A stretch of DNA of 64,000 nt from Candidatus Omnitrophota bacterium (GTDB taxonomy: Bacteria > Omnitrophota > Gorgyraeia > 2-01-FULL-45-10), in NCBI GenBank assembly GCA_020057115.1, contig JAGVGJ010000018.1:6067-70066 (forward strand), in the 5' to 3' direction. Of this stretch, positions 15,886 through 61,393 are shown in pieces (the first letter of the stretch is position 1; each line of letters opens with the position of its first letter). The position numbers and the translations under genes are program-made. The notes under the pieces are model-generated. The model did no database searches. It was given only the letters and a program-made list of their open reading frames with translations, and was not told the DNA's origin.

Positions 15886-17271
15886 TCATGTATGCACGAT
15901 CCAGTTCATGAAACGTTTCGCCAGGAATTGAAAATGCCTCAATGACTTCACCGACTTAATATGATACCAGATTATGCCCGGTCTCAGGTAAAATTTAGCG
16001 AAGGCGCGCCTGTGCAGGTTCTTGAGCTCTTTACGCGTAAACGCAGGAAATACATACGCGGCATTCGTGAAATAGAACTTCTCCCAATCGACATCATGGA
16101 GCTCGCCGGTAGCTTTAAGCATCTCGTAAGATTCGGTCCCGGGGAAAGGAAGATAGGTGAAGAAGTTTGCGCGCTGTATCGGAAGGCGCGCCGCGAAATC
16201 TATCGTCTCGTTGGCCGTCTTCACCGTCTCCGTAGGAAACCCGAGTATGAAGAATCCCGCCATGTCTATCCCGGCCTTATGGATGCGGCTGACGCACTCC
16301 TCTATCTTCTTCGTATTAGTCCCCTTCTTCATAAAACTCAATATCTTATCGGAGCCCGACTCTATCCCAAGAGAGATCATATATAGGCCCGTCTCCTTCA
16401 TAAGCCCCAACAGCTCCTCGTCGAGCGTCTCCATCCTGACGCCATTAGGCGTAGACCAGCTGATATCGAGCTTGAGGCATTTAAGTTTCCTCAAAAGGTC
16501 CTTGGCATAGGCTTTGTCCATGGTGAAGTTGTCGTCTATTATGTGAAATTCGCGGATGCCATGGTCATCATAGAGCATCTTCATCTCTTTTAAGACCGAC
16601 TCTGCCTTGCGCTTACGCACCTTTCTTCCCGAGACTATATAGCCTGCGCAAAAAGTGCACTGGTATGGACAGCCGCGCGTCACCATTATCGGGGCGATCG
16701 GGAAATTCTTGAAAAATGCGCCATGCTGGGCTTCGGGATAATTTTCCGGATGGATCATGTCCCATGCGGGAAACCCGAGAGAGTCGAGGTCATCTACCAC
16801 GGCCTTGGGATTCTTCCTTATCGCGCCATTATCGCGCCATACAAGGCCGGGTATATCCGAAAGATCCTTCCTCTTCTTCTCTATAGCCTCCAGTAGCTTA
16901 GGCAGACCAAGCTCCGCTTCGCCTACGAACAAAAAGTCGAGGTCTTTTCCAAACTTTGTTAATGTCTCTTCGGGAAGAGCCGAGGCATGAGGCCCACCGA
17001 TGATCGTAACTATATCTTTATTTATCTTTTTTATTTCCAGCAGGGCCTTTGAGATAAAACCTAGGTCAAAAGTATAACATTGCAATCCAACGACATCCGG
17101 CATAAATTCTTTGATACGGGCCGGCAGGTCTTCAAGCCTGATATTCTCCTTTATGCAATCCAGTATCCGGACATCATGGTCCTTGCGTATGGCCGTGGCT
17201 AAATACCCAAGCCCGAGGGACGGCTGTATATGGTCGCTTCTATTATATGGTTTTACTAAAAGTACTTTCAT
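15886..17271 (-). CDS. B12-binding (class B) radical SAM enzyme
   Basis: 461 aa with an N-terminal cobalamin-binding-like domain and the radical SAM CxxxCxxC motif (CPYQCTFC). Confidence 0.8.
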   Translation of the reverse strand: MKVLLVKPYNRSDHIQPSLGLGYLATAIRKDHDVRILDCIKENIRLEDLPARIKEFMPDVVGLQCYTFDLGFISKALLEIKKINKDIVTIIGGPHASALPEETLTKFGKDLDFLFVGEAELGLPKLLEAIEKKRKDLSDIPGLVWRDNGAIRKNPKAVVDDLDSLGFPAWDMIHPENYPEAQHGAFFKNFPIAPIMVTRGCPYQCTFCAGYIVSGRKVRKRKAESVLKEMKMLYDDHGIREFHIIDDNFTMDKAYAKDLLRKLKCLKLDISWSTPNGVRMETLDEELLGLMKETGLYMISLGIESGSDKILSFMKKGTNTKKIEECVSRIHKAGIDMAGFFILGFPTETVKTANETIDFAARLPIQRANFFTYLPFPGTESYEMLKATGELHDVDWEKFYFTNAAYVFPAFTRKELKNLHRRAFAKFYLRPGIIWYHIKSVKSLRHFQFLAKRFMNWIVHT

Positions 17272-17970
17272 CTAGTTGACGAACCTGTATTTTAACAGGG
17301 CCCATAGCGCCCCGAAACCATGCTTCCAGGATATCTTCTTTCCTTCGGCGTAAGTCCTGCCGTAATACGATATCGGCATCTCATATACCCGCAAGGCCTT
17401 GTTCTTCAGTATCTTTGCCGTAAGCTCTGGTTCTACGGAAAAATCGTTCGACTTTATCGATATCTTGTCTATCACGCCCTTCCTAAACATCTTGTAGCAT
17501 GTCTCCATATCCGTCAGCGTAGAATTGTACAGGAAGTTCGTCAGGAAAGTAAGAAAGCTATTCCCCATTTTGTGCCAAAACATGTGCACCCGCTGTGGCT
17601 TGCCTCCCGAAAGTCTTGAACCATATACGACATCGGCAAATCCGTCCCTGATGGGCTTTATCATCTCGAGGAACTCCTGCGGGTCATACTCAAGGTCCGC
17701 GTCCTGCACGATCACGACATCTAAAGTGGCGTGTTTAAAACCGGTCCTTAATCCCGCTCCTTTGCCTGCATTCTTTTCATGAAACACGAGTTTTACTCTG
17801 GGGTCGAGCTTCGCGCTCTTCAAAACATCCGCCGTGCCGTCCTTTGAACCGTCATCTACCACAATAAGCTCTCCGACGATCGGCACGGACAGGACCTTAT
17901 CGATGATCTTTAATATGGTATTCTTCTCATTATAAACAGGCATCACGACGGACAAACATCTGGGTTCCAT
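17272..17970 (-). CDS. GT2 polyprenyl-phosphate glycosyltransferase (Dpm1/ArnC-like)
   Basis: 232 aa with the SVVMPVYNE…DDGSKDGT…DADL GT-A motifs typical of dolichol/undecaprenol-phosphate sugar transferases. Confidence 0.75.
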   Translation of the reverse strand: MEPRCLSVVMPVYNEKNTILKIIDKVLSVPIVGELIVVDDGSKDGTADVLKSAKLDPRVKLVFHEKNAGKGAGLRTGFKHATLDVVIVQDADLEYDPQEFLEMIKPIRDGFADVVYGSRLSGGKPQRVHMFWHKMGNSFLTFLTNFLYNSTLTDMETCYKMFRKGVIDKISIKSNDFSVEPELTAKILKNKALRVYEMPISYYGRTYAEGKKISWKHGFGALWALLKYRFVN

Positions 17971-17985
17971 ATACAGGCCTTTCAG

Positions 17986-19410
17986 TTAATACGCAACTTC
18001 ATACTTGTGCTGTTTTTTCTTCTTCTTTAACAAGCCCAGCCGGATAAGCGATGCCTTGATAGCATCCTCAACCGCTTTCCAGTAGAACCTGCTGTATCTT
18101 ATGACATCGAGCGCTCCTACGGCAGGCAAGGTCTCTCTCCTGTTAAGCGCCTCGTGGAATATGTTCAAGTTGAGTTTCGAGTTCTCATAGGTGAATATCT
18201 TCCAGTTATAATCCGTAAGCCAGAAATCATCGGCTATAAATCCTACCTTCTTCGCGTGCTCGTATAACTCGGTCCCTGGCAGTACCCTGAGACCATTCGC
18301 AAGGCCTACGTCGTCAGGCTGCGCGCGCTTTAAAAATTCCACAGTCTGGTTTATAGTAGCTCTCGTCTCACCCATATTCCCGGCTATCAAGAGGGCTGAT
18401 GTCCTTATCCCGGCTTCCTTGGTCATCTTTATGGCCTTCTCCGATGTCGCTACGGGAATAGGCTTCTTCATGACCTTCAAAAGCTCTTCCGAACCTGTCT
18501 CTATGCCGAAATTTATCTTAAAACACCCGGCCTTCTTAAGCTTCGCCAACAGCTCAGGGTCAAGACAGTCTGTGCGCGATACTATCTCAAAAACAATGTG
18601 GAGGCCGCGCTTCAAGATCTCGTCGCATAATTCCGCCGCAGCCTTCCTGTTTGCGGTAAACAGGTCATCGTTGAACGCAAGGCGCTTTGCCCCGTAGCTT
18701 TTTACCAAAAGCTCAAGCTCGTCGGCCATATTTTTGGCGGAACGGCCGCGCCATCTCTTCCATAGCAGCTTATCAGCGCAAAAGATGCAAGAACCTATAC
18801 AGCCGCGCGAAAATACTACCGGGACGCACGGCTCTTTGCTTATGTCGATACCGTTACATACGCCTGATCCGTCGGATGGGTATCTCTTTATATCGATAAG
18901 CTCCCAGGCCGGAAACGGTATCTCGTCCAGGTTGGCTACGAGCTTCCTGTCAGGGTTTACGACCGTCTTCCCGTCCGGCGCGCGGTAAGTTATCCCGTCT
19001 ATAGCGCTCGGATCCTTCCCCTGGCACATCTCGAGAAATGTTATCTCGCCCTCTCCTCTCATGACGATATCTATGAAAGGATAATTCTCTATCAATTGCC
19101 TGTGCATAAGGGTCGCATGGGCGCCGCCCACTTCGACCATGATCTTCGGATCTATCCTCTTGGCAAGCCGGGCGACCTCAAGGGCCTTGACCCTGGAATA
19201 TGTATGGCATGTTATTCCGACTATCGTAGGCTTATATGCTCTTATCTTATCCTCGATGCCGCCCCATCCCTCTATATATCCGTCAATGAGATCGACAGGT
19301 ATGCCGTTCTTCTTAAGTGTCCCGGCGATATAGAGAAGCCCGAGCGGAGGCGTCGAATACTCGCCTCTTCCCGATTCAGGAGGGTTTACCAGAAGGACCT
19401 TGTGCATCAT
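17986..19410 (-). CDS. B12-binding (class B) radical SAM enzyme
   Basis: 474 aa with an N-terminal B12-binding-like fold and a CIGSCIFC cluster motif. It is a paralog of 15886..17271. Confidence 0.8.
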   Translation of the reverse strand: MMHKVLLVNPPESGRGEYSTPPLGLLYIAGTLKKNGIPVDLIDGYIEGWGGIEDKIRAYKPTIVGITCHTYSRVKALEVARLAKRIDPKIMVEVGGAHATLMHRQLIENYPFIDIVMRGEGEITFLEMCQGKDPSAIDGITYRAPDGKTVVNPDRKLVANLDEIPFPAWELIDIKRYPSDGSGVCNGIDISKEPCVPVVFSRGCIGSCIFCADKLLWKRWRGRSAKNMADELELLVKSYGAKRLAFNDDLFTANRKAAAELCDEILKRGLHIVFEIVSRTDCLDPELLAKLKKAGCFKINFGIETGSEELLKVMKKPIPVATSEKAIKMTKEAGIRTSALLIAGNMGETRATINQTVEFLKRAQPDDVGLANGLRVLPGTELYEHAKKVGFIADDFWLTDYNWKIFTYENSKLNLNIFHEALNRRETLPAVGALDVIRYSRFYWKAVEDAIKASLIRLGLLKKKKKQHKYEVAY

Positions 19411-20039
19411 CTCTTTGCCACCACTATATATTGCTCCGTCAAATAATCGCTTAAGGCGCCCCTAAGCATCTTGTTGATGAACTTTTTTGATTTCGAACCT
19501 GCGAGCTTCTTCCTGATATTGACTATCTCAAGCTCCGCGTCCTTAAGCAGTTCCTCTATGTTATGAAGCGCGAAGAAGCGCAGATGCGTCTTATCGAAGA
19601 CTCCTCGATCCGTATAGTCCCACTTCTTCTTCCACAGCATCTTTATCGTCCTGTAATGGGCGACATTGGGTATGCTGATGACAACATGCCCCCCCGGCTT
19701 AATAAATTCCCGATGCCTGATGATAAGGCTCCACGGGTCTATCAGGTGCTCGAGCACATCGCCGTAGATTATGCAGTCAAAATACCCTTTTGAGAACGGA
19801 AGCTCAAGCGTCTCTACGTTGCCTACTATGACCTTGTCCAGATTGGCCTTCGCCTGCTCGGCCGCGTCATTCATTATCTCGATACCTGTGACCTCGACCC
19901 GGGAACCGCGTTTCTCTTTTATCGCGCGGCCCGTCAGGCCTGCGCCGCACCCGACCTCCAGGATCTTAAGCGCCCCTTCAGGCAGGACGTCGATTATGTC
20001 ATCCCTTATGGCCGTATAATATTCCGGTTTCTTTTTCAT
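19407..20039 (-). CDS. Class I SAM-dependent methyltransferase
   Basis: 210 aa with a glycine-rich motif I (LEVGCGAGLTG) and an acidic motif II (DCIIYGDVLEH). Confidence 0.75.
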   Translation of the reverse strand: MKKKPEYYTAIRDDIIDVLPEGALKILEVGCGAGLTGRAIKEKRGSRVEVTGIEIMNDAAEQAKANLDKVIVGNVETLELPFSKGYFDCIIYGDVLEHLIDPWSLIIRHREFIKPGGHVVISIPNVAHYRTIKMLWKKKWDYTDRGVFDKTHLRFFALHNIEELLKDAELEIVNIRKKLAGSKSKKFINKMLRGALSDYLTEQYIVVAKR

Positions 20040-21611: not shown

Positions 21612-21626
21612 TATCTCCCCTATTTT

Positions 21627-21656
21627 CTGGACCCTGGACCCTTGCCCCTGGACCCT
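21627..21656. repeat. Heptanucleotide repeat block R2 (ggaccct ggaccct tgcccct ggaccct) in the 45-nt spacer upstream of the GT2 paralog-b start
   Basis: Four tandem 7-mers, one of them variant, directly between the TAA of 21657..22679 and the ATG at 21611. Confidence 0.7.
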
Positions 21657-29331: not shown

Positions 29332-29349
29332 ATCGCGTCCGCCGTCTTT

Positions 29350-30327: not shown

Positions 30328-30405
30328 CTCTTCGTCTCCTTTGTCATTACAAACGCCTGTACTTCATGTGTCATTGCGAGGCCGCGAAGCGGCTGAAGCA
30401 ATCTA

Positions 30406-32338: not shown

Positions 32339-32353
32339 ATGCTCTCCTATCTT

Positions 32354-37604: not shown

Positions 37605-37606
37605 GT

Positions 37607-51114: not shown

Positions 51115-51116
51115 CT

Positions 51117-52145: not shown

Positions 52146-52164
52146 ATATCTCCTTATGCGTTAT

Positions 52165-52869: not shown

Positions 52870-54005
52870 GCCGCGCTCCTTGATCCCACGTTCACCAGTG
52901 CCTCTACGAATTTCGGAGCATTGGTTTTCAACGAATATTTTTCAACAGCGGTCGCCCTGCCGGCCTCGCCTATCGAGCGCCTTAAGCCAGCGTCCCCGAC
53001 AAGGCGCGACAGCTTCTCTTCCCATTCTTTGCCGTGGAAAGCCAGATAGCCGTTGACGCCGTCTTTAATTATATCCTTGTTCACCCCTACGGGGGAGACT
53101 ACCACAGGTATCCCCATGCTCATATAAAGTATCGCCTTAAAAGCGCACTTGCCCCTGGTCCAATCGGTGTCAGGCATCGGCATTATGCCTATATCGAAAT
53201 GCGCCATGTCATCCCTCTCCGTCTCGAGAGACCATTCTTTAGCTACCAGCCCATCGTGCCTTAACGAATCGAGCCGGCCTCCGACGATATGCACCTTGAG
53301 CGACCTGTTCTTGTCAAGAAGCGATCGGAAGATATTTTCAAGCTCTTCCAGGAATACCTGGGTCGTGTGGCTGCCTATCCATCCGATCACGATATTGTTT
53401 TTCAGGCCTCCCGGCATGCCGGCTTTGTTATAATTATCGGTATCTATACAGGTAGGTATTATGACCACGTTCTTATTGAGCGGCTTTGTGTGTTCCTTGA
53501 GGAATTCATTGCCGGCTATCACGAGGTCGCTATGTTTTATGATAAAATCTGTCTTCCGCGGGCATTTCAGGATCCCCATGGCCTTGCTGGAACCCTGCGG
53601 CGGAAGATATATAGCGTCATCATAATCAAATATGATCTTATTGCGGGCAAAAAACCGTAAACCGAACAATACTGATTCGAGGATCGGCGGACCTATGGGA
53701 AAAACTTCCCGATGGATAAATATGACGCTGTAGAACGGCGCCGTGAAGACATCGATAAACCGCCGCATTGACGCTGCGAGGAACAAGAATACCTTTTTAG
53801 GGGCATTGCCTTTCTTGTATAGTATCCTGTAAAACGACGCCGTATAGAAAGGCCTTACGGAATAACCGAACCCGGCATTCTCAAGGTACGGGAGGAACTG
53901 CCCTACCCTCAACCGCGCGCTCGCGCCCTCGGTCGGATACGGAACCAGGAACAGTATCTTCCCTTTTGCCTTTATGTCCCGAGATGGTTTCATTACGGCC
54001 CCCAT
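52866..54005 (-). CDS. GT4 family (GT-B) glycosyltransferase
   Basis: 379 aa with a GT-B C-terminal sugar-donor domain (…ILYMSMGIPVVVSPVGVNKDII…). Confidence 0.65.
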   Translation of the reverse strand: MGAVMKPSRDIKAKGKILFLVPYPTEGASARLRVGQFLPYLENAGFGYSVRPFYTASFYRILYKKGNAPKKVFLFLAASMRRFIDVFTAPFYSVIFIHREVFPIGPPILESVLFGLRFFARNKIIFDYDDAIYLPPQGSSKAMGILKCPRKTDFIIKHSDLVIAGNEFLKEHTKPLNKNVVIIPTCIDTDNYNKAGMPGGLKNNIVIGWIGSHTTQVFLEELENIFRSLLDKNRSLKVHIVGGRLDSLRHDGLVAKEWSLETERDDMAHFDIGIMPMPDTDWTRGKCAFKAILYMSMGIPVVVSPVGVNKDIIKDGVNGYLAFHGKEWEEKLSRLVGDAGLRRSIGEAGRATAVEKYSLKTNAPKFVEALVNVGSRSAA

Positions 54006-54748
54006 CTTCGCCTTATGCCCAACTCTATCCTGCCGAATATAAGCTTATCGGTGAATATGCTTATCAATGTTATGGTTATCATTACGGCTATCACCTGGCT
54101 CATGTCGTTAAGCTCCCTTCCCATGGCAAGCAGGTATCCGAGGCCCAGATTGAGGAATAGCAGCTCTCCTGCCATAAGCGAGCGCCAGGCGAACGACCAG
54201 CCCTGCTTCAAGCCGGATATTATCGGCGGCATGGCAGCCGGCATGATGACCTCTATCAAGAGCCTGAACCTTCTGGCGCCCATGTTCCTTCCTGCCTTTA
54301 CATAGAGCTGCGGCAGGTTCTTGACCGCCGAGTAAGTGGCCATGGTTACCGAGAACAATGCTCCGATTATCACTATGAATATTATAGCCTTTTCATTGAG
54401 CCCGAACCATAATAAAGCAAGAGGCAGCCAGCATATGCTCGGCAATGTCTGCAATCCCAGGACCAGCCCGCCCAGCGTATCCTCGACCGTCTTGAACTTG
54501 CTCATAACAAGCCCAAGCAACCCGCCTAGGACTATTGATATGCCGTATCCTATCAATAAGCGCCTCATGCTTATTATTATGCCGAAGATGAACGTGGTGT
54601 CCATGAAACCATGGACTAGCGTATCAAATACTTTCAGTGGCGACGGAAACAGGTATGGCGGCCATATTTTGAGCATGGCCACGATCTGCCACAGCGCCAG
54701 TATCGCAGAATAGAATATTATCTGTTTAACTGTCTTCTTTTGTATCAT
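53993..54748 (-). CDS. ABC transporter permease (NitT/TauT family, SsuC/TauC-like)
   Basis: 251 aa with six TM helices and a binding-protein-dependent permease EAA-like loop. Confidence 0.75.
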   Translation of the reverse strand: MIQKKTVKQIIFYSAILALWQIVAMLKIWPPYLFPSPLKVFDTLVHGFMDTTFIFGIIISMRRLLIGYGISIVLGGLLGLVMSKFKTVEDTLGGLVLGLQTLPSICWLPLALLWFGLNEKAIIFIVIIGALFSVTMATYSAVKNLPQLYVKAGRNMGARRFRLLIEVIMPAAMPPIISGLKQGWSFAWRSLMAGELLFLNLGLGYLLAMGRELNDMSQVIAVMITITLISIFTDKLIFGRIELGIRRRWGP

Positions 54749-55532
54749 ATTCCTCGTGGAAATGTTTGTCTATCTCGAACTTCAGCTCTTTAAGCACCTG
54801 TCTCACGTGCTTCATAAGCCCTTCGTCCTCGATGCGCCTGGGCCTTGGCAGGTCTATCAAAAAACTGGCCTTAACCGCCCCGGGCAGAGACGAAAAAACA
54901 AGGACCCTGTCGCCGAGGCATACCGCTTCTCTGACATTATGGGTAACGAAGATTATGGTCTTCTTCGTCCTCGACCATATTTTCTGCAGCTCGTCATGAA
55001 GGCTGTCCCTGGTCTGTGCATCGAGCGCCGTAAAAGGTTCATCCATCAGCAGTATCTCCGGATCCAAAACGAGCGCCCTTGCCAGGGCTACCCGCTGCTT
55101 CATGCCGCCCGACAACTGGTGTATGTACGAATCCTTGAATTTTGTCAGGTGGACCATGTCGATATACTCGCGCGCCAGTTTTGCCCTCTCTTTCGAAGGC
55201 ATCTTCTTCAGTTTCAATCCGAACTCTACGTTCTTCTGTACCGTAAGCCAGGGAAAGAGCCCAAGCTCCTGGAATATCATGAGCCTGTCAGGTCCTGGTA
55301 TGCCCACCGGCTCGCCTCTGTGGAGGATCTTGCCGGTATGATCAAAGTCAAGGCCTGCCACCATATTGAGCAGCGTAGTTTTGCCGCACCCGGAAGGCCC
55401 TACGATACAGACGAACTCCCCGTCATTTATCTCGAGGTTGATGTCTTTTAAGACATCCAGCCTCTTGCCGTTGTGCGCATAGGACTTGGTTACATTTTCT
55501 ATTTTAAGCATTGCTGGCATACAAGCGTTCAC
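54726..55532 (-). CDS. ABC transporter ATP-binding protein (NitT/TauT family)
   Basis: Walker A GPSGCGKTT, LSGGMKQR signature and Walker B LLMDEPF. Confidence 0.85.
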   Translation of the reverse strand: MNACMPAMLKIENVTKSYAHNGKRLDVLKDINLEINDGEFVCIVGPSGCGKTTLLNMVAGLDFDHTGKILHRGEPVGIPGPDRLMIFQELGLFPWLTVQKNVEFGLKLKKMPSKERAKLAREYIDMVHLTKFKDSYIHQLSGGMKQRVALARALVLDPEILLMDEPFTALDAQTRDSLHDELQKIWSRTKKTIIFVTHNVREAVCLGDRVLVFSSLPGAVKASFLIDLPRPRRIEDEGLMKHVRQVLKELKFEIDKHFHEEYDTKEDS

Positions 55533-56554
55533 TCCGAAATTGGTTCAGCGCCTTTTTCTTTCAATACATCGCTCAGGATCTTCAGGTCGTAAATACCGCT
55601 CAAGTCAGGCATCTTGTCCCCCAGAAATCCCTGCTCAAATGCCCACCGGGCAGAATTGAATAACGAACTCTTTATGGGGTCATATGTCACTTTAAGCCTG
55701 GAAAAAGCGTCATTTATCACGCCTTCGGGAAGCGCCTTGCCTGTAAGGCGCTTTATCTCGGCGTTTACCATATTTTTTGCTTCCGGAAGGTTGGAATTTA
55801 TCCACGCGGTAACTTCAACGTGCGCGGCCAGCCACTTCTTCACAATGTCAGGATGCGCATCGAGGAATTTTTTGCTCGCTATGATATGGGCGGTCACAAA
55901 ATCGCCGTTAGGCCATATCGTACGCTCGTCCAGGAAGAGCCTGCCGTTACCTTCTCTTATGAGGCGGCTCACCCATGGTTCGACCGTCCAGGCGGCGTCT
56001 ATTTCCTTCTTCATGAACAAGGTCAATTGGTCGGGGTTCGCTATGGGCACGACTTGTACATCCCCGCCTTTCTCTTTCAGTTTAAAACCGTTGTCTTTAA
56101 GCCACCCTCTCAGGGCGACGTCCTGGGTGTTCCCAAGCTGAGGAGAGGCAATTTTTCTGCCGTGGAAATCGTCTTTGGTCTTTATGCCGCTGTCATCTCG
56201 CACAACAAGTCCCGCGCCGCCGCTTGTAGCTCCGGCCACGATCCTCAGGGCCACGCCATCAGATTTGACATAACCGTTTATAGCAGGATTCGGCCCTATA
56301 TAAGAGAGGTCTATCTCGCCTGCAAAAAGGGCCTCTATCACCGAAGGCCCTGCATTGAACAGCTTGGTCTCTATCTTCGTGTCATTGCCAAGTTCTTTTT
56401 GGAATGTGCCATTGGCCAGGCCGACCAAAGCCTGGGAATGGGTTATATTAGGGAAATATCCAACGCGTATTACATTCTTCTCTTGGGCATTACATGCGCA
56501 GCAAATGGAAAAGAAGAACATTGTTGCTGCAAAGAATATCGATAACTTTTTCAT
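55529..56554 (-). CDS. ABC transporter substrate-binding protein (NMT1/SsuA/TauA-like), secreted
   Basis: 341 aa with a signal peptide followed by a Cys-rich segment, then a periplasmic-binding fold typical of the sulfonate/nitrate/taurine family. Confidence 0.7.
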   Translation of the reverse strand: MKKLSIFFAATMFFFSICCACNAQEKNVIRVGYFPNITHSQALVGLANGTFQKELGNDTKIETKLFNAGPSVIEALFAGEIDLSYIGPNPAINGYVKSDGVALRIVAGATSGGAGLVVRDDSGIKTKDDFHGRKIASPQLGNTQDVALRGWLKDNGFKLKEKGGDVQVVPIANPDQLTLFMKKEIDAAWTVEPWVSRLIREGNGRLFLDERTIWPNGDFVTAHIIASKKFLDAHPDIVKKWLAAHVEVTAWINSNLPEAKNMVNAEIKRLTGKALPEGVINDAFSRLKVTYDPIKSSLFNSARWAFEQGFLGDKMPDLSGIYDLKILSDVLKEKGAEPISE

Positions 56555-56581
56555 CTTTCGCCTCCTATTCTATTGGCCCGA

Positions 56582-58012
56582 TTAGAATTTCGTGATGACA
56601 TCGAACAAGAGCTGCTCATATGGATCGCGCTTGTCATACGATTTGATCGGTTCCATCCAGTAATATGTTATGTTGCATACCGTGTTCTTGGCCATCTGGT
56701 ATTCCATCATGAGCTTGGTGCCCCTGCCATTAGTGCCGCCTGCCGCGGGAAGCCCGTTCACGTTGGGCACGGTGATCGCGCTGGTATATGTGCCAAAACC
56801 GTAGAAATTGGAGTCGGGCATAAAGTCCGGCACGGCGTCGCGCTGGATATACCTCCACTGGGCGCTAGCCTTCCAATCACCGGGGTCTTTAAGCTTCTTC
56901 TTGCCTATATAACCACCTATGGCAGCGCCCTTGTTGAGGTTCTCATCACTCACGCTTGCATTATATATGAAATCGAACATAAACCCATGAGGTATTTTGA
57001 AATCCCCTATGCTCTGGTTGTCTATCGAGAGCAGGAGGTCAAAAACATTATATTCATACTTATACGTTCCGAGCGATGAAGGGTTTATGCCATAACCATA
57101 ATCCCCGATCCATGTCCTGGAATTCGTGCCGGCGCTGTTGGCATTAGGCGTCTTGCCCTGGAGATTGGCAAAATCATAAATAGTAGCAGAGAGGTTAACC
57201 GTCGAACCCATCGCGCCGAATGATTCTGTCTTTACGCCCGCCTGGAAGGCCCAAAGAATAGGGTCTGTATTGATGTTGGCCGACTCATCTACCCAGAGCA
57301 TGCCAATATTCGAATAGGCGTTCAATGCCGGCAGGAAACCCATATCTACACCCGGCGAAACATATTGGAACGCAAGACCGCCCGGATTTATGTCGGTATC
57401 CCAGACCAGCTCCGTATATTCAAAAGGATTTGAGAACTTGCCTGCCCAAAGCTTCATGTCGCTAAAGTAGCATTTATACTTGTCTACCATCTCCTTGGGC
57501 GCCTCAAATCTCATATAATACTGATCGAACATCACGAAAGGCTTATTGAAATATCCCGCAATAGTGTCATCGGTAGTGCGTGGATTGGTATTGCCTCCCG
57601 CAAACCTCGCTCCTGCATAAGTGATACTGTTGACCTTCCCTTCGATCGTGAAACGGCCGCGGATGCTCTGCTGGATCCTCTGCTTCCTGAGATCGTTTGC
57701 ATTTGTCGGAGCTGTTGTTTGCGGCTGGTTCTGGGCCGTCTTGCCCCAATCACCCCTGGTGCGGTACCTGACATCCCCGCCCATCTTAACCCTCTCGATC
57801 CACTCCGGAACTGTCACGGACGAGGTCTTCGGAAGATCTTTCTGCTCCTTGACTATAGTCTCCTTGAAAGTCTTAGCCTCATCCTGCGTAACTACACCTT
57901 TTACCACCAGAAGATTCAACAGCCGCTCTACTTCCGTCTCGGCGCTTGCAATGGGCGCCAAGAGCATCATGCCAACCAAAACACAACTCGCAACAGCCAA
58001 TATCTTTCCCAT
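56582..58012 (-). CDS. Outer-membrane beta-barrel protein (putative porin)
   Basis: 476 aa with a signal peptide and alternating amphipathic beta-strand character. The C-terminal residue is Phe (…DVITKF), typical of an OMP. An AGGGAGGGA RBS lies upstream. Confidence 0.6.
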   Translation of the reverse strand: MGKILAVASCVLVGMMLLAPIASAETEVERLLNLLVVKGVVTQDEAKTFKETIVKEQKDLPKTSSVTVPEWIERVKMGGDVRYRTRGDWGKTAQNQPQTTAPTNANDLRKQRIQQSIRGRFTIEGKVNSITYAGARFAGGNTNPRTTDDTIAGYFNKPFVMFDQYYMRFEAPKEMVDKYKCYFSDMKLWAGKFSNPFEYTELVWDTDINPGGLAFQYVSPGVDMGFLPALNAYSNIGMLWVDESANINTDPILWAFQAGVKTESFGAMGSTVNLSATIYDFANLQGKTPNANSAGTNSRTWIGDYGYGINPSSLGTYKYEYNVFDLLLSIDNQSIGDFKIPHGFMFDFIYNASVSDENLNKGAAIGGYIGKKKLKDPGDWKASAQWRYIQRDAVPDFMPDSNFYGFGTYTSAITVPNVNGLPAAGGTNGRGTKLMMEYQMAKNTVCNITYYWMEPIKSYDKRDPYEQLLFDVITKF

Positions 58013-58110
58013 CGCTCCCTCCCTTGTTTCGTTGCCCCAGTTGGCTGGTCAACTAACTGTTAATATTTTATTTCTGTGGCCTTATCGCGGATGTCCGCTC
58101 CTGCAAACCG

Positions 58111-58605
58111 CTAGATTAACTTCTCTCCCAAGCTAAGCGCGGTCCTGGCTAGCGATTTAAGCTCTTCTATCTTTTTGATCCTTTGGGAACATATAGAGGC
58201 TACCCTCTTATCTTCTTCGCTGAATTCACTGCCCGTAGATTGAATTATCTCTTTAAACTCATCCGTAATAGCGGACACCTCGTCTATCCTCCTCCTGGCT
58301 CCGGACTTTACTTTACTAAGGATCACTTTCTTGATATCGAGTTCAGCTTCATAATAATCTCTTCGGCATCCCTTGACCCAGATCTTCCTCACAGCCCCCC
58401 ATTTCTCAAGCTCCCTGATATTTATGCTCACGTTACCTTTGCTGACTCCCAGCCTTGCCGCAAGCTCATCCAGACACATATGTTTATCGCTTAGATAGAG
58501 CACTGTATATAGCTGAGCGACAAACTTATTAAGGCCGAAGCTATCGCAAAGTTTTGCTACGCTGTTTATAAACTTGTCCTGCGCCATTTCTAATTTCCTA
58601 TGCAT
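58111..58605 (-). CDS. MarR/GbsR-type winged-helix transcriptional regulator
   Basis: 164 aa. The N-terminal HTH (…LDELAARLGVSKGNVSINIRELEKWGAV…) is GbsR/MarR_2-like. A GAGAGAGG RBS lies upstream. Confidence 0.65.
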   Translation of the reverse strand: MHRKLEMAQDKFINSVAKLCDSFGLNKFVAQLYTVLYLSDKHMCLDELAARLGVSKGNVSINIRELEKWGAVRKIWVKGCRRDYYEAELDIKKVILSKVKSGARRRIDEVSAITDEFKEIIQSTGSEFSEEDKRVASICSQRIKKIEELKSLARTALSLGEKLI

Positions 58606-58726: not shown

Positions 58727-58764
58727 GGAAAAAGCCGTTATCTGAGAATGCGCTTATAAACGGC
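58727..58764 (-). terminator. Candidate intrinsic terminator overlapping the stop codon of GT4 gene 58738..59928
   Basis: Minus-strand RNA forms gccgtttat-(14 nt loop)-ataacggc followed by UUUUU. The TAA stop lies in the descending stem. Confidence 0.5.
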
Positions 58765-59928
58765 CTCATATATCGAGAGACCGAATTTTGAAGACAAATT
58801 TTCGGCCGCTAGTGCTTCGCAGCGCTTTTGAAGGGCCGGGCCTTCTTTGATAAGTAATTCTAGTTCTTTAACAGATCTTGCATATGATCCTTCATCTAAA
58901 CACCTTACAACAACCCCTACCCTATTCTTTATTATCATATCTTCCACATCTCCCATCCCGGCGTTTATCACTATGGGAAGGCCTGCGGCAAGATATTCGG
59001 CGATCTTTATTGGGAATGAGTCGAGCCGTTCGTTAGGACACTTGAAGAGGACGCCTGCTGTAGCGCCCCAAAGATTCTTCGGAACATCTTTGTATGCGGC
59101 TTTCGTAACGGTGACACCATCCAGGCCCTTATCTTTGGCGATGCGCGCAACCAACCCTTCCTTATCGTCTGTCAGGAACAGGCACTCCGAATTCAAACGC
59201 GCAGTCTTTAACGCCTTGAAGAGGTCGAGCATCTCGGGTATCATATACCATCCTGACAATGAACCCAGGTACACAAGCCGCATGTCGCCGCCCGGCTGCA
59301 CATAGGCATGTTCTTTTTTCTCTTCGAAACGCTGGACATCGACGCAGCACGGAAGGACCGTTATTCTTGGGACTTTCTTGCGGCCGCCAAAAAGCTTCTC
59401 AAGCTCTTCCTTGTGAGTTCTGGTCTCGACAATGACCTCGTCGGAATTAAGTACGCATAACTTTTCGAGGGATACAAGCATCCGGTATGTGATGGACTCC
59501 CGTTTTATCCTGCCATTCAGCCTGTAAGCCTCGGCGAGAGAGCTCTTCATGTCGAATATGAACTTCACGCCAGCGAGCTTAGCGGGGATCATGGCTATGC
59601 ATGCGCCCATTATCCCGCGAGCATGGATAATCTTTATCTTCTTTGTAAGGCATGCCCACAAAACGACTATCGAACCTATCTTTATATCAAACCACTTTGC
59701 CAGGAGAAGGGGCCTGGAGTGGAACTTAAGCCTTATCCATTCTATCCCGGCATCATTTAACTGCTTTGATATGTCGGCGCCTTGCGAAAAGTCTTTTTCA
59801 AATGATAAAAAATAGAACTTTATCCCTATTTGCGATAATGCAGATATATAAGGCAGGACCTGCGACCTGACCAGAGGCTCTGTCGCCGCATTGTATGATA
59901 CGAATAAAGCCTTCTTATCTTTTGGCAT
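58738..59928 (-). CDS. GT4 family (GT-B) glycosyltransferase
   Basis: 396 aa with a GT-B fold and a C-terminal donor-binding region (…EYLAAGLPIVINAGMGDVEDMI…). Confidence 0.7.
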   Translation of the reverse strand: MPKDKKALFVSYNAATEPLVRSQVLPYISALSQIGIKFYFLSFEKDFSQGADISKQLNDAGIEWIRLKFHSRPLLLAKWFDIKIGSIVVLWACLTKKIKIIHARGIMGACIAMIPAKLAGVKFIFDMKSSLAEAYRLNGRIKRESITYRMLVSLEKLCVLNSDEVIVETRTHKEELEKLFGGRKKVPRITVLPCCVDVQRFEEKKEHAYVQPGGDMRLVYLGSLSGWYMIPEMLDLFKALKTARLNSECLFLTDDKEGLVARIAKDKGLDGVTVTKAAYKDVPKNLWGATAGVLFKCPNERLDSFPIKIAEYLAAGLPIVINAGMGDVEDMIIKNRVGVVVRCLDEGSYARSVKELELLIKEGPALQKRCEALAAENLSSKFGLSIYEAVYKRILR

Positions 59929-61393
59929 CGGTCTTATTTAACTTTCTAAGTCTAAAAAATGCGTTCACGGTCTTAACGCCTGTGCCCCAGAACTGAGTAG
60001 CCAGGAGGAATATAAGCCTGACGGGATTCTTCATATTATCTTTTATGAAGTTCTTGAGATTTGTAGGAAGGATGACCTTGAAACGGGCCAGTAAATACAT
60101 CTTCTCAAAATCTTCTTTCGACATGGCGGCGTAAGATACGCTCGACATCACCGGGTCGCCTATCTCGTCCCACGGAGGTATGGGCTTGCCGGACTCCTTA
60201 AGTTCCTTATAAACGCTTGTCCCGGGAAGCGGCATAAATATATTGAAGCCGACGTTCGAAGGCTTTATCTTTTCAAGGAACTTTATGGTCTCGGCAAAGT
60301 CCTCTTTAGTCTCGCCTGGATAACCGACTATGATATTCGCTTGAAAACGCATGCCGGCCTTTCTGGTAAGAAGCGCGGCCTGGGTATTCTCTTCGACCTT
60401 CGAGACCTTATTCATGGCATCCAGGATCCTTTGGCTGCCGGACTCAAAACCGTATTCGACCCCGACACAGCCGGCGCGCTTCATGAGCTCGAGCATGGCC
60501 GGATCTATGACATTGACCCTCGCCTGGGCGAACCACTTTAGCTTCTTCGACCACGGCTGTTTTATAAATTCTTCAAGGAGCTCTGTCGCGCGCTTCTTCG
60601 ATGCAAGGAACATGTCCTCGGCGAAATAGAGGGCCTCCGCATTATATTTATTCACCAGGTTGTCTATCTCGGCGATTACCCTTTTCGTTGAATGGTAACG
60701 TACTTTGCCGGGGAATACTATGGGCCCGGCGCAGAAATTACATCTATAGGGACAGCCGCGCGCTGTAAAGATAGACGTGGTCCTAAGGCTCAGGTTCCTA
60801 GACGTGAATCTGCTCGGCCTTAAGTAGAATTCCATGTCGAGCAAGTGGTGCGCGGGCAGCGGCAGGCTGTCCAGGTCTATGATATGCGGCCGCGGATCGT
60901 TCAGCGAGACCTTCCCGTCTTTTCGGTAAGCTATACCTTTTAAGTCCGGAAGTTTTGTGCCTCTCAAGAGATCGAGCCAGGTCTCCTCACCCTCGCCTGC
61001 CATGGCGATATCGAGACTGGAAAATTCTTCAAGCGTCTCTACCGGAAGGGCTGTCGCATGCGGCCCGCCTATGACGATCAGCGTCTCCGGGGTCTCGCGT
61101 TTTATCATCTTCGAGATATCGTTCACGTCGAGCATATTGGGCGTAGTTGCGCTGATCCCGATGAAGTCGGGATTAAAATTATTTATTTCGGACATCATGA
61201 CTTCGTCCGTCTTGTTGAAATCAAGCCCCTCCTTCCTCAAAACGACATCCCTGTCAAAGATCTTGACGGCATGGCCCGCCTTCTCCATGACAGCTGCGAT
61301 ATAGGCCAGGCCAAGCGGCGGCCAGAACTGCTTATTCTCATCGACCTTTGCCCTTTTTCGGGAAAGGAGCGGATATATCAGGAATATCTTCAT
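59915..61393 (-). CDS. B12-binding (class B) radical SAM enzyme
   Basis: 492 aa with an N-terminal B12-binding-like domain and a CPYRCNFC motif. It is the fourth paralog in the window. Confidence 0.8.
   Translation of the reverse strand: MKIFLIYPLLSRKRAKVDENKQFWPPLGLAYIAAVMEKAGHAVKIFDRDVVLRKEGLDFNKTDEVMMSEINNFNPDFIGISATTPNMLDVNDISKMIKRETPETLIVIGGPHATALPVETLEEFSSLDIAMAGEGEETWLDLLRGTKLPDLKGIAYRKDGKVSLNDPRPHIIDLDSLPLPAHHLLDMEFYLRPSRFTSRNLSLRTTSIFTARGCPYRCNFCAGPIVFPGKVRYHSTKRVIAEIDNLVNKYNAEALYFAEDMFLASKKRATELLEEFIKQPWSKKLKWFAQARVNVIDPAMLELMKRAGCVGVEYGFESGSQRILDAMNKVSKVEENTQAALLTRKAGMRFQANIIVGYPGETKEDFAETIKFLEKIKPSNVGFNIFMPLPGTSVYKELKESGKPIPPWDEIGDPVMSSVSYAAMSKEDFEKMYLLARFKVILPTNLKNFIKDNMKNPVRLIFLLATQFWGTGVKTVNAFFRLRKLNKTDAKR

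Follow-up and report, generated by a model that had tools for sequence, protein, structure and literature searches.

Four class-B radical SAM genes in a probable envelope-glycan mega-locus of a Candidatus Omnitrophota bacterium

Gene content and extent of the locus

The window analysed here, a 64,000-nt stretch of DNA from a Candidatus Omnitrophota bacterium, holds 57 genes that all run in one direction (every feature described below lies on the minus strand), and 38 of its 56 gene junctions overlap or abut. Glycan genes occupy the window from about position 12206 to its end at 64000. An initial annotation had placed a glycan cluster at 15886-61393; the glycan locus itself stands, but its extent had to be revised to more than 50 kb. 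At the left edge lies a GT28/MGDG-synthase-like glycolipid glycosyltransferase (12206..13342; PF06925, 114.7 bits), whose top NCBIfam model, diglucosyl-DAG synthase, reaches 233 bits against a cut-off of 500. It adjoins a GmhB-type heptose 1,7-bisphosphate phosphatase for an LPS core precursor (13343..14110; NF006506, 178.4 bits against a cut-off of 178), a GT-C fold membrane glycosyltransferase of the PMT_2 type with nine transmembrane (TM)-like segments (PMT2a, 14029..15402; PF13231, 40.8 bits), and a 134-aa protein with one N-terminal TM-like segment (15404..15808) for which searches of Pfam and NCBIfam returned zero matches.

Beyond the first two class-B radical SAM genes lie five consecutive GT2 genes (20036-20863, 20808-21611, 21657-22679, 22676-23716 and 23706-24887; PF00535) and an SGNH/GDSL esterase or acyl-modifying enzyme with an N-terminal TM-like segment (24884..25948; PF13472), which is replaced by a B12 radical SAM gene in the related locus L007. 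An LPS block follows, comprising a heptosyltransferase-type GT9 (25945-27048; PF01075; heptosyltransferase II model, 124.4 bits against a cut-off of 134.6), a Wzy_C ligase/polymerase-type protein (27030-28304; PF04932) and a WecA/MraY-type initiator (28294-29331; PF00953); the block (25945..29331) is syntenic in L007. Pfam assignments then give a run of five genes (29350..34201) encoding an NDP-sugar epimerase/dehydratase, a GT4, a 105-aa protein, a DUF4330 protein and a GT1+DUF218 protein. Next comes a polysaccharide deacetylase (34222..35220; PF01522 at residues 157-289), whose true start is probably further downstream, because the listed reading frame overlaps the neighbouring gene by 226 nt. 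That neighbour encodes a SPASM-domain radical SAM enzyme (34995..36044; PF04055 + PF13186) that reaches no NCBIfam cut-off and has weak PDB matches to PqqE, BtrN and DesII; SPASM radical SAM genes also occur in L008, L010, L015, L070, L071 and L073. Three class-I SAM methyltransferases (MT2, MT3 and MT4; 36041-36865, 36858-37682 and 37607-38338), a Wzx-type flippase with nine TM-like segments (38325..39800; PF01943, PF13440), a further class-I methyltransferase (MT5, 39804-40499) and a FemAB-like/Acetyltransf_6 protein (40496-41518) complete this part of the locus, the methyltransferases and the FemAB-like protein being Pfam assignments.

The remainder includes a sulfur module. Two cytoplasmic members of the alkaline-phosphatase/NPP superfamily (AlkP1, 41515-43173; AlkP2, 43170-44468; PF01663) are 25% identical, keep the GxDG, PT(V/T)S..AW and SDHG motifs and have no TM segment by TM-like segment prediction. 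They adjoin the sulfate adenylyltransferase genes CysN (44465-45724) and CysD (45724-46524), which together (44465..46524) pass TIGR02034 (348.7 bits, cut-off 336.1) and NF003587 (353.5 bits, cut-off 195), and the order CysD-CysN-AlkP2 is kept in L069 and L070. Further along lie an SsuA-family sulfonate ABC importer (permease, ATPase and binding protein; TIGR01728, 225.5 bits against a cut-off of 163.5), a Porin_5 protein and a MarR-type regulator (53993..58605; the last two by Pfam). The conserved CysD-CysN-alkaline-phosphatase-like module beside the importer hints at sulfation, without a known sulfotransferase. Between these two blocks sit an AsnB-type glutamine-dependent amidotransferase (46508..48415; TIGR01536, 454.7 bits against a cut-off of 267.1), in which the catalytic Cys2 is present since the N-terminus reads MCGI, the third class-B radical SAM gene, and four genes assigned by Pfam as GT4, a GFO/IDH/MocA sugar dehydrogenase, a membrane-anchored transglutaminase-like protein and GT1 (49960..54005). 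At the right end, beyond the fourth class-B gene and its GT4 neighbour, are two more GT-C fold membrane proteins with TM-like segments, PMT2b (61390-62757; PF13231) and a YfhO protein (62682-63965; PF09586).

All the types of gene named in the initial annotation are present by Pfam: GT2/GT4 transferases, a WecA-type initiator, a flippase, a ligase-type gene, a deacetylase, an SGNH esterase, asnB and a FemAB-like gene, together with its single SPASM radical SAM gene and its five SAM methyltransferases, all class I (the four above and MT1, described below). Absent from its list were CysD/CysN, the two alkaline-phosphatase-family genes, the sulfonate ABC transporter, the porin and the MarR-type regulator, as were the GT9 transferase, GmhB, two PMT_2 proteins and the YfhO protein; it had thus overlooked the LPS-core block, the GT-C/polyprenyl-phosphate-sugar modules and the CysD-CysN-alkaline-phosphatase-like module with the sulfonate importer alongside. 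Given WecA, Wzx, Wzy_C, GT9 and GmhB, its claim of a heavily tailored surface glycan or LPS is a fair reading, which we word as an LPS-type or envelope glycan.

Four class-B radical SAM paralogs and their partners

Four genes, here rSAM1 (15886..17271), rSAM2 (17986..19410), rSAM3 (48416..49963) and rSAM4 (59915..61393), each encode a B12-binding domain (PF02310, 69-85 bits; Pfam cut-off 32.1), a Radical_SAM domain (PF04055, 73-92 bits; cut-off 29.5) and one CxxxCxxC motif (CPYQCTFC in rSAM1), bearing out their annotation as class-B (B12) radical SAM genes. We infer cobalamin binding from the match to the B12-binding domain by itself. The proteins are only 26-32% identical to one another and are therefore deep paralogs in an unexplored part of the class-B superfamily. 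None reaches a curated family cut-off in NCBIfam (BchE, HpnJ, HpnR, PhpK, ladderane and others): the top models are Sden_1168 (192 bits, cut-off 575) and HpnJ (189, cut-off 578) for rSAM1, HpnJ (155 against 578) for rSAM3, and ApyD (201, cut-off 750) and BchE (193, cut-off 481) for rSAM4, with ApyD ranking second for rSAM2. Membership in the BchE, HpnJ, ApyD or Sden_1168 families was rejected at 155-207 bits against cut-offs of 481-750, and the grouping with BchE-type enzymes or lipid methylases that the initial annotation had considered as an argument against a glycan role was not seen. An AlphaFold2 model of rSAM2 (pLDDT 90) has QCMT/MgmA, TsrM, AprD4, OxsB, CysS and TokK as top Foldseek matches, and AprD4 (6fd2) is the best PDB sequence match for rSAM1 and rSAM4. 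The DxHxxG motif was not found in any of the four, as in most class-B enzymes, and the 64,000-nt window contains no cobalamin riboswitch. TM-like segment prediction gave no TM segments in the four proteins; their C-terminal tails are strongly basic (net +7 to +11 over the last 60 residues), which would fit peripheral membrane binding.

Each paralog can be tied to partners of its own. Between rSAM1 and rSAM2, which flank it, lies a short GT2 of 232 aa (17272..17970) of the polyprenyl-phosphate sugar synthase type. Its top PDB matches are DPMS (5mlz), ArnC and GtrB, and four of its five best NCBIfam models are PpgS, PgfS, ArnC and dolichyl-P hexose transferase, although the single best is the S-layer N-glycosyltransferase AglJ; all five score below cut-off. 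Unlike ArnC and GtrB, it lacks TM helices, and a search for a GtrA- or ArnEF-type flippase for polyprenyl-P-sugar found none. The same short GT2, then an rSAM1 ortholog, occurs in L007, the contexts compared for rSAM1 being those of close relatives, and we tie rSAM1 to this GT2. The partners tied to rSAM2 are a methyltransferase and a GT2. The class-I SAM methyltransferase MT1 (19407..20039; Pfam) overlaps rSAM2 by 4 nt and is 30% identical to the methyltransferase domain of P0074, an rSAM2::methyltransferase fusion with nine member sequences; in L001, L004 and L006 the rSAM2 homologues have a GT2 gene one or two genes away, and its best match in the window is the GT2 at 20808-21611.

For rSAM3 the tie is to the GT4, AsnB and FemAB-like group, a FemAB-like gene directly following the rSAM3 ortholog in L009. 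The partners of rSAM4 are PMT_2 and GT4: PMT2b overlaps it by 4 nt, and the GT4 transferase GT4d (58738..59928; Pfam) by 14 nt. Four rSAM4::GT4 fusions (P0136, P0194, P0212 and P0215) join the two proteins elsewhere; GT4d aligns over its full length to the C-terminal half of P0212 (35% identity, E 1e-76) and is 34% identical to P0194. Two paralogs lie beside GT-C transferases, and two flank the short GT2.

Recurrence in homologous glycan loci

Homologues of three of the paralogs lie in polysaccharide loci on 10 of the 12 independent contigs examined, from several phyla: a Geobacter MAG (L001), a metagenome (L004), Thermodesulfovibrionales (L006), Omnitrophota (L007-L009), L010, Margulisbacteria (L071), L072 and L073. 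Homologues of rSAM2 occur in L001, L004, L006 and L007, and those of rSAM3 in L009, L010 and L073. The order methyltransferase, rSAM, GT2 is found in the window, in Smithella (L015) and in Margulisbacteria (L071), and the order PMT_2, rSAM4, GT4 in the window, L008 and L072; in L008 the rSAM4::GT4 gene is followed by orthologs of the GT1 and transglutaminase-like genes of the window region 49960..54005. Two Omnitrophota contigs (L011 and L012) carry rSAM2 homologues (50% identity) among regulators, a peptidase and GAPDH, with no glycan context; the glycan link is therefore not universal within the family. The initial annotation had also called a cluster of this density uncommon; that claim fails, as in each of the related loci L008, L009, L010 and L017 about 21 kb of DNA hold five to eight genes for B12 radical SAM enzymes.

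Could the apparent supercluster be a pile-up of co-directional but independent operons (LPS core, O-unit, GT-C decoration and sulfur assimilation), with the radical SAM genes as cargo acting on unrelated cellular substrates? The importer/porin/MarR block (53993..58605) does separate glycan genes that adjoin each other in L008, a strong promoter-like sequence (58678-58650), the top sigma-70-like site of the region, lies upstream of the MarR gene, and rSAM2-family members sit outside glycan loci in L011 and L012. LPS and capsule genes were also among the hypervariable-locus cargo in a genome study of Omnitrophota. We nevertheless consider this very improbable: overlaps of 4 and 14 nt join radical SAM genes to their partners, and the fusions and the gene orders repeated across phyla would be difficult to account for if no functional link existed. 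The co-location is beyond chance because it recurs in 10 of 12 loci and two paralogs are fused to the types of gene that neighbour them in the window. That the radical SAM genes would belong functionally to glycan assembly, as the initial annotation proposed, is well supported by conserved synteny (Geobacter, Thermodesulfovibrionales, Margulisbacteria and other Omnitrophota) and by the rSAM::methyltransferase and rSAM::GT4 fusions.

Probable substrates and reactions

On these comparisons, the four enzymes very probably tailor surface sugars. A lipid target (the polyprenyl carrier, lipid A acyl chains or a glycolipid anchor), by analogy with HpnP, HpnR and the GDGT ring synthases and methylases, seems improbable to us. 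Lipid modification is an established activity of class-B radical SAM enzymes, radical SAM genes for membrane-spanning lipids have been reported in Omnitrophota, the basic tails suggest membrane association, and a glycolipid-synthase-like GT28 stands at the locus edge. However, the HpnR model scores 57-104 bits (cut-off 650) and the ladderane lipid model 98-139 bits (cut-off 360), the window contains no fatty-acid, isoprenoid or lipid A genes, and the partners and fusions are glycosyltransferases and methyltransferases rather than lipid-synthesis genes. We give as little credence to a peptide or protein substrate (RiPP-like or a surface glycoprotein) as to the pile-up of operons, even though AsnB, the transglutaminase-like and the FemAB-like proteins could be taken as peptide-processing enzymes. 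PMT_2 family enzymes can glycosylate proteins, the model that leads for rSAM4 and comes second for rSAM2 is that of ApyD, a RiPP radical SAM enzyme, a lasso-peptide cyclase model matches AsnB at 286 bits, and AsnB adjoins a transglutaminase-like gene in L008. Yet the ApyD cut-off of 750 is far off, AsnB passes a genuine asparagine-synthase model with its catalytic cysteine kept, and the transglutaminase-like protein carries a TM segment at its N-terminus. Moreover, neither a gene for a precursor peptide nor a PqqD/RRE-type protein nor a peptidase/exporter set was seen, and the domains fused to the radical SAM proteins are GT4 and methyltransferase.

If sugars are the substrates, the likeliest reaction would be cobalamin-dependent C-methylation, as in GenK, GenD1 and MoeK5. 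We consider this plausible by analogy; according to a 2026 review (PMC12931638), sequence cannot separate methylating from non-methylating class-B members. Radical chemistry without methylation is a possible but doubtful alternative, whether ring contraction to a cyclitol or carbasugar, 1,2-diol dehydration/deoxygenation as in AprD4, or epimerisation. For ring contraction there are two proposed precedents: HpnJ, with hopanoid-linked glucosamine as substrate, and calditol synthase, with a lipid-linked hexose. Among the NCBIfam models, HpnJ comes first or close to first for each of the four paralogs (155-189 bits), and AprD4 leads the sequence matches of rSAM1 and rSAM4 and is among the top fold matches of rSAM2. 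HpnI, HpnK and HpnJ are a GT2, a deacetylase and a radical SAM enzyme, and genes of all three types are present in the locus. A radical SAM enzyme that turns a lipid-linked hexose into calditol has been described (bioRxiv 10.1101/2023.10.20.563219), and the 2026 review assigns non-methylating enzymes to the same large, unresolved group (PMC12931638). Against this, the scores fall far below the cut-offs of HpnJ (577.6) and the AprD4 family (500), and the B12-binding match is strong in all four paralogs, whereas AprD4 binds no cobalamin (PMC12931638). C-methyltransferases also occur in all functionally characterised groups (PMC12931638), and the way class-I methyltransferases recur as neighbours and fusion partners speaks for a methylation theme.

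In the C-methylation scheme, for which we infer the substrate class, cobalamin use and reaction type, each radical SAM enzyme would work next to its partner transferase, on the cytoplasmic side of the membrane, and act at an unactivated carbon of one particular lipid-linked, or just-transferred, sugar residue, while the class-I methyltransferases would supply O- or N-methyl groups. The locus could be divided into modules of four kinds. One is an LPS core/ligase/initiator block made up of GmhB, GT9, Wzy_C and WecA. A second is a Wzx-dependent line that would assemble a lipid-linked oligosaccharide, drawing on about a dozen GT2/GT4 transferases and on methyl, acyl, amide and deacetyl tailoring. 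Side branches would form the third kind, with at least two modules that each pair a GT-C transferase (PMT_2 or YfhO) with an adjacent class-B radical SAM gene; the module on the left has the polyprenyl-phosphate-sugar synthase-type GT2 in addition. The fourth is the sulfur module of sulfonate importer, CysDN and two alkaline-phosphatase-family enzymes. Overall, we lean towards reading the window as a portion of an LPS-type or envelope-glycan mega-locus in which each class-B radical SAM enzyme would tailor sugars with a partner of its own.

A probable LPS/O-antigen-type locus with four class-B radical SAM genes

All 57 substantial ORFs in the window that resemble real genes lie on the minus strand, and 38 of the 56 junctions between them overlap or abut, with a gap of more than 150 nt at a single junction. 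A database protein of 100% identity, on a 93-kb contig, and the nearest relatives indicate Candidatus Omnitrophota. The glycan genes start near 12206, where a GT28-like glycolipid synthase, a GmhB protein at the NCBIfam cut-off (178.4 bits versus 178) and a PMT_2 GT-C membrane protein are encoded, and they extend beyond 63965, with a second PMT_2 protein and a YfhO protein at the right end. An initiator (PF00953, 118 bits), a Wzx flippase (PF01943, 82 bits) and a Wzy_C protein of the WaaL/Wzy kind (PF04932, 81 bits) supply three components of a Wzx-dependent LPS/O-antigen-type locus. The block of GT9, Wzy_C and WecA genes (25945-29331; the GT9 scores 104 bits with Pfam and 124.4 bits with the heptosyltransferase II model, cut-off 134.6), together with GmhB, suggests an LPS-core or ligation character. 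No Wzz, clear second Wzy, lipid A or Kdo genes were found in the window.

The initial annotation had described four class-B radical SAM ORFs within a dense set of glycan genes. These four, which we call rSAM1 (15886-17271), rSAM2 (17986-19410), rSAM3 (48416-49963) and rSAM4 (59915-61393), agree base for base with the ORF list of the window. Pfam likewise recovered the SPASM radical SAM gene (34995-36044) and five class-I methyltransferases where they had been placed, as well as the GT2 and GT4 transferases, the WecA-type initiator, Wzx, Wzy_C, the deacetylase, the SGNH esterase, AsnB and the FemAB-like gene. Judged from its genes, a locus with Wzx, about a dozen GT2/GT4/GT1 transferases, an epimerase/dehydratase, a GFO-type dehydrogenase, a deacetylase, an SGNH esterase, AsnB and a FemAB-like protein would describe a heavily tailored lipid-linked oligosaccharide. 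As listed, the deacetylase ORF overlaps the SPASM gene by 226 nt (34222-36044); its true start codon is probably well downstream, because the Pfam domain begins at residue 157. No cobalamin or SAM riboswitch, no other Rfam family and no tRNA gene was detected in the window, and scans for promoters and terminators gave counts at chance level, with one stand-out site before a MarR-type gene.

The glycan system may also reach left of PriA and UDG. Of two genes between 5227 and 9068, the first encodes a 697-aa protein that has nine TM-like segments and matches the spermine-synthase domain weakly; the second encodes a 583-aa TPR protein with seven TM-like segments, homologs of which occur inside radical SAM glycan loci of Geobacter (L001) and Smithella (L015); it is these homologs that raise the possibility. 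Farther left, a tandem pair of genes from the galactose-1-phosphate uridylyltransferase/HIT family (870-2920; DUF4921/DUF4931 type) possibly represents nucleotide-sugar metabolism tied to the glycan locus.

A check proposed in the initial annotation, a search with PF02310 and PF04055, placed both domains above cut-off in all four radical SAM proteins: the B12-binding domain scored 68.8, 80.8, 69.8 and 85.4 bits (cut-off 32.1), followed downstream by a Radical_SAM domain at 73-92 bits (cut-off 29.5). Each protein has one CxxxCxxC motif about 200 residues in (CPYQCTFC, CIGSCIFC, CPHRCAFC and CPYRCNFC), and the DxHxxG motif is absent from all four. At 26-32% pairwise identity they are ancient paralogs, not the product of recent amplification. 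Their best PDB sequence matches are AprD4 and 9CCB, the latter being the glutamine C-methyltransferase QCMT (PMC12931638). An AlphaFold2 model of rSAM2, the one paralog modelled, has a pLDDT of 90, and Foldseek superposes both of its domains on QCMT, TsrM, AprD4, OxsB, CysS and TokK (E 1e-21 to 5e-26, TM 0.63-0.73, identity 16-22%). All four proteins lack TM segments, and their tails are basic and aromatic-rich, with a net charge of +7 to +11 over the final 60 residues by simple hydropathy and charge counts.

None of the paralogs reached a curated NCBIfam cut-off, the best scores being 155-207 bits against cut-offs of 481-750. The best models were Sden_1168/HpnJ for rSAM1, BchE/ApyD/HpnJ for rSAM2, HpnJ for rSAM3 and ApyD/BchE for rSAM4; those for HpnR, ladderane rSAM, PhpK, KedN5, BzaD and QCMT all scored below the best ones. 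Membership in individual families was rejected on scores given here for rSAM1 to rSAM4 or as ranges: the anaerobic Mg-protoporphyrin cyclase BchE (TIGR02026; 155.7, 206.9, 130.6 and 193.0 bits versus 481.35; chlorophyll genes are absent from the window), HpnJ (TIGR03471; 189.1, 178.2, 155.2 and 175.6 versus 577.6), the P-methyltransferases PhpK (TIGR04479; 86-158 versus 600) and Sden_1168 (NF038361; 92-192 versus 575), and KedN5 (45-89 versus 700). Taken together, the Pfam domains, the CxxxCxxC motifs, the rSAM2 fold and the sub-cut-off NCBIfam scores indicate that, by sequence and predicted structure, the four paralogs have a genuine class-B architecture and fall outside the curated families compared. 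The superfamily is very large: its roughly 83,600 sequences fall into over 100 groups, and the largest of these is unexplored (PMC12931638).

The initial annotation held that the glycan reading would weaken if the paralogs grouped with BchE or with lipid methylases. Model scores give no such grouping, nor do they place the proteins positively among sugar methylases, in a comparison with curated NCBIfam models, which cover BchE, HpnJ, HpnR and the ladderane rSAM and include none for GenK, GenD1, Fom3 or MoeK5. Modification of a lipid by these enzymes is very unlikely: the lipid-modifying HpnR (TIGR04367) reached 57-104 bits versus 650 and the ladderane lipid rSAM (TIGR04072) 98-139 versus 360, in a comparison that took in these two and not HpnP, GrsA/B or Hgm. 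Modification of a peptide or protein is more doubtful still. ApyD is among the best models of two paralogs; the RiPP-enzyme models themselves stayed far below cut-off (ApyD 107-201 versus 750; TIGR03975 92-120 versus 281.85). A lasso-peptide reading of AsnB (46508-48415) and a transglutaminase-like protein was also rejected, as AsnB passes the asparagine-synthase model and retains Cys2, and the transglutaminase-like protein is membrane-anchored.

Gene context and fusions of the homologs

The paralog families are large, with 839, 1293 and 1936 scored matches in the searches. We picked homologs for a context survey by the length of their contigs, regardless of their neighboring genes; the survey comprises twelve independent loci and is not a statistical sample, and for rSAM1 the context is that of the window and close relatives only. 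Ten of the twelve loci are polysaccharide loci.

In the rSAM2 family, a Geobacter MAG (L001) has the order Wzx-rSAM-acyltransferase-GT2-MT-GT2-GT1-MT-GT2-GT4-YfhO (MT, methyltransferase), a Thermodesulfovibrionales locus (L006) has rml genes and Wzm/Wzt followed by rSAM-GT2-MT-GT2-MT-GT1, and an Omnitrophota locus (L007) is syntenic with 15886-30327 of the window. In a metagenome (L004/L005), Wzx is followed by a gene in which the radical SAM protein is fused to a methyltransferase, and then by GT2-MT-GT2; the methyltransferase domain of this fusion matches the window's MT1 (19407-20039), whose gene overlaps rSAM2 by 4 nt. The rSAM4 family repeats the theme with a different partner: four distinct proteins join an rSAM4-type enzyme to a GT4, one of which (P0212, 861 aa) aligns with the entire GT4 that adjoins rSAM4 in the window (35% identity, E 1e-76). 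Two further loci (L008 and L072) keep the window's order PMT_2-rSAM4-GT4, and a Margulisbacteria homolog (L071) lies in Wzx-SPASM-GT4-MT-rSAM-GT2. For rSAM3, the loci read MT-MT-rSAM3-FemAB-like-aminotransferase (L009, which also has six more B12 radical SAM genes, two PMT_2 genes and Wzx), PMT-rSAM-rSAM-MT (L010, with a short GT2 and two SPASM genes) and GT4-rSAM-SPASM-GT-AsnB-MT (L073, with a UDP-sugar dehydrogenase).

The order class-I methyltransferase, B12 radical SAM, GT2 recurs at 17272-20039 of the window (Omnitrophota), at 9186-12136 of L015 (Smithella) and at 7970-11084 of L071 (Margulisbacteria); the radical SAM proteins concerned are about 30-44% identical, and short overlaps of a few bases are frequent between the genes. 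In L008, the radical SAM array has NeuB, an aminotransferase and a gene of the CMP-sugar synthetase type (CTP_transf_3) as its neighbors (20196-22358), which suggests a nonulosonic acid in the related glycan.

The two exceptions (L011, 1005-2432, and L012, 9983-11410) encode 475-aa Omnitrophota proteins that are 50% identical to rSAM2 and lie outside glycan loci, beside response regulators, an M16 peptidase and GAPDH. The L011 homolog is near GAPDH, CBS, Fmt and PriA; genes for CBS, Fmt and PriA also flank the window on its left. The subgroup may represent either the ancestral location or a paralog that acts on a different substrate. The glycan link is accordingly strong and not universal. That the radical SAM genes have no functional link to the glycan genes is a reading with which these two loci would agree; we regard it as highly improbable in view of the other ten loci and the fusions. 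As a rough background, a contig scan with the rSAM2-family alignment and its generic pattern (RGCxGxC[DN]FC) recovered two genuine members of the family; the other 56 radical SAM loci were distant or unrelated and had almost no glycosyltransferase matches.

The claim that a cluster of such density is uncommon did not hold up. Seven B12 radical SAM genes occupy 21.5 kb in the Omnitrophota glycan locus L009, at least six occupy 22 kb in L008 (where the assembly seems to split some genes), five are present in L010, and five stand consecutively in a Bacteroidales MAG (L017, 8508-15649). By these counts, the window's four in 45 kb are ordinary for such loci in these uncultured lineages.

Lipid-linked sugars as candidate substrates

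Between rSAM1 and rSAM2 lies a gene for a 232-aa GT2 (17272-17970), for which the best PDB matches, dolichol-P-mannose synthase, ArnC and GtrB, all belong to the polyprenyl-phosphate glycosyltransferase class. Among NCBIfam models the S-layer N-glycosyltransferase AglJ ranks first, ahead of PpgS, PgfS, ArnC and dolichyl-P hexose transferase; these four are polyprenyl- or dolichyl-phosphate sugar synthases, and all five models score below cut-off (for instance 106 versus 325 and 77 versus 370 bits). A similar short GT2 adjoins B12 radical SAM genes in L007, L010 and the Smithella locus. The multi-TM GT-C proteins of the window (PMT_2, 40.8 and 32.6 bits, cut-off 26.1; YfhO, 57.7, cut-off 28.5) have counterparts with the same placement, GT-C genes adjoining B12 radical SAM genes twice in the window and also in L008, L009, L010 and L072.

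In pairing a short GT2 with PMT_2/YfhO proteins, the window resembles ArnC-ArnD-ArnT, GtrA/B/C, PpgS-Rv3779, CsbB-YfhO and PgfS-PgfM, and ArnD is a precedent for tailoring a lipid-linked sugar before its transfer. Unlike the Gtr- and Arn-type systems, the window has no small flippase of the GtrA or ArnE/F type by Pfam among its 57 proteins (the sole unassigned small proteins have one TM segment each), and the tailoring enzymes would be radical SAM proteins. To our knowledge, such enzymes are without precedent in polyprenyl-P-sugar/GT-C decoration systems, and the literature we searched yielded none. Nor did it yield any account of O-antigen, capsule, polyprenyl-phosphate or GT-C pathways that involve class-B radical SAM enzymes; where a preprint on Omnitrophota genomes mentions radical SAM and glycosyltransferase domains, it does so only for the modules that giant proteins contain.

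The substrate of HpnJ is a lipid-linked amino sugar that a GT2 and a deacetylase produce. The gene is hopanoid-associated, with HpnI (GT2) and HpnK (deacetylase), its model is the best or near-best curated one for all four paralogs, and both partner enzyme types are present in the window. However, the hopanoid genes shc, hpnH and hpnG are absent from the window, and the reaction proposed for HpnJ is a ring contraction, not a methylation. The window also shares the B12-binding and radical SAM architecture, with glycosyltransferases and class-I methyltransferases nearby, with GenK and GenD1 (gentamicin) and MoeK5 (moenomycin), which C-methylate sugars in oligosaccharide or glycolipid pathways, MoeK5 putatively on a lipid-linked sugar; the three are listed as Csp3 methyltransferases (PMC12931638). 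In contrast to these actinomycete antibiotic enzymes, the window's genes sit in a WecA/Wzx/Wzy_C/GT9 envelope-glycan locus, comprise four deep paralogs, and have relatives fused to GT4 or methyltransferase domains. The structurally solved enzymes that share both domains with the rSAM2 model, QCMT/MgmA (9CCB), TsrM, TokK, CysS and OxsB, act on a protein glutamine, tryptophan, a carbapenem, an aryl methoxy group and a nucleotide, none in a glycan context. GenK, GenD1, MoeK5 and HpnJ are the closest known enzymes in probable mode of action.

From sequence, predicted structure and gene context, on which the whole analysis is based, we favor with reasonable though incomplete confidence a radical tailoring of lipid-linked sugars that is coupled to partner enzymes, with cobalamin-dependent C-methylation as the most probable reaction. 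The radical SAM enzymes would work at the membrane surface, beside their partner transferases, on sugars held on a lipid carrier. A sugar chemistry other than methylation, such as an HpnJ- or calditol-type ring contraction or an AprD4-type dehydration, is a lesser possibility that we hold to be rather unlikely. HpnJ and AprD4 are among the best model and PDB matches, and no sequence feature sets non-methylating class-B members apart from methylases (PMC12931638). In AprD4 and ArsL, a related N-terminal domain is without cobalamin (PMC12931638). Within the favored tailoring of lipid-linked sugars, recurrent pairing and fusion with class-I methyltransferases leaves room for an unusual reaction, radical extension of an O-methyl group. 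CysS carries out such an extension on an aryl methoxy group.

A CysD-CysN-AlkP module and the wider reading

AsnB is followed by CysD (45724-46524; NF003587, 353.5 bits versus 195), CysN (44465-45724; TIGR02034, 348.7 versus 336.1) and two cytoplasmic paralogs of the alkaline-phosphatase/NPP family, AlkP2 (43170-44468) and AlkP1 (41515-43173), the whole translationally coupled (41515-46524). A metagenome scan with AlkP2 found two loci, both with CysD-CysN-AlkP2 in polysaccharide loci, one with Wza and Wzc (L069, 2078-6299) and the other with Wzx, GT2 genes, WecA, a B12 radical SAM gene, a sulfatase and a SPASM radical SAM gene (L070, 5990-9179). The order is therefore kept in all three loci seen, AlkP1 being a second paralog in the window. 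The AlkP proteins retain the metal-ligand and nucleophile motifs of the superfamily and belong to a family of 2,473 cluster representatives at E <= 1e-30; PDB sequence searches with either gave at most a weak PhnA match. Neither an APS kinase nor a Sulfotransfer-family enzyme has a Pfam match among the 57 window proteins, and these may be encoded elsewhere in the genome.

In L070, two genes after CysD-CysN-AlkP2 and just before the B12 radical SAM gene and WecA of this biosynthetic glycan locus, a PF00884 sulfatase is followed by the SPASM radical SAM gene (11168-13742), an arrangement like that of an anaerobic sulfatase maturase. We considered the window's SPASM protein as such a maturase for the AlkP proteins. 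No maturase model is among its 25 best NCBIfam matches, and it has no BLASTP similarity to the sulfatase-adjacent SPASM protein of L070, so this reading is unsupported.

At 53993-58605, a GT1 and a GT4 whose orthologs adjoin each other in L008 are separated by an ABC importer for aliphatic sulfonates of the SsuA family, whose binding protein scores above the NCBIfam cut-off, and by a Porin_5 protein and the MarR-type regulator. The best promoter-like site of the region, TTGACG-17-TATAAT (58678-58650), lies before the MarR gene; MarR-type genes also occur inside the L001 and L008 glycan loci.

A known locus for a sulfated capsule of the PAPS-dependent kind, the Cobetia marina CPS cluster, contains cysNC, cysD, cysQ and a sulfotransferase (PMC11766843). 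The window is similar in having cysD and cysN inside a polysaccharide locus, near a sulfur-compound importer (PMC11766843), but lacks an APS kinase, CysQ and a recognizable sulfotransferase and has instead the conserved CysD-CysN-AlkP module. Judged from these genes, sulfation is likely an extra tailoring step. Since no APS kinase or sulfotransferase domain lies near the conserved CysD-CysN-AlkP2, the module may reflect an unrecognized use of APS in glycan sulfation.

A bolder reading joins all of these strands and is, as a whole, unlikely. The radical SAM proteins would constitute several envelope-glycan tailoring families across phyla, working, as the fusions suggest, in a physical complex with a glycosyltransferase or methyltransferase; their substrates would be polyprenyl-phosphate-linked sugars bound for GT-C transfer; the products would be new to LPS and capsules, either C-alkyl-branched or carbocyclic sugars or O-ethyl or O-isopropyl ethers built on the paired methyltransferase's O-methyl; and CysD-CysN-AlkP would perform PAPS-independent sulfation, with the AlkP-superfamily enzyme moving sulfate directly from APS.

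The association of radical SAM enzymes with glycan genes is real, widespread and unstudied, and is neither surprising in kind nor unusual for the lineage. The function of class-B enzymes is not predictable from sequence, and this locus and its relatives give several orphan subfamilies a concrete substrate context that can be tested, in the form of a defined partner transferase for the assembly of a cell-envelope glycan, with natural fusions in some relatives that suit biochemistry. A separate lead is the CysDN-AlkP module, which points to a possibly unrecognized sulfation route. If the products prove to be C-alkylated, carbocyclic or otherwise unusual sugars, the enzymes would offer new biocatalysts for C-H functionalization of sugars and would widen the known surface-glycan chemistry of uncultured anaerobes.
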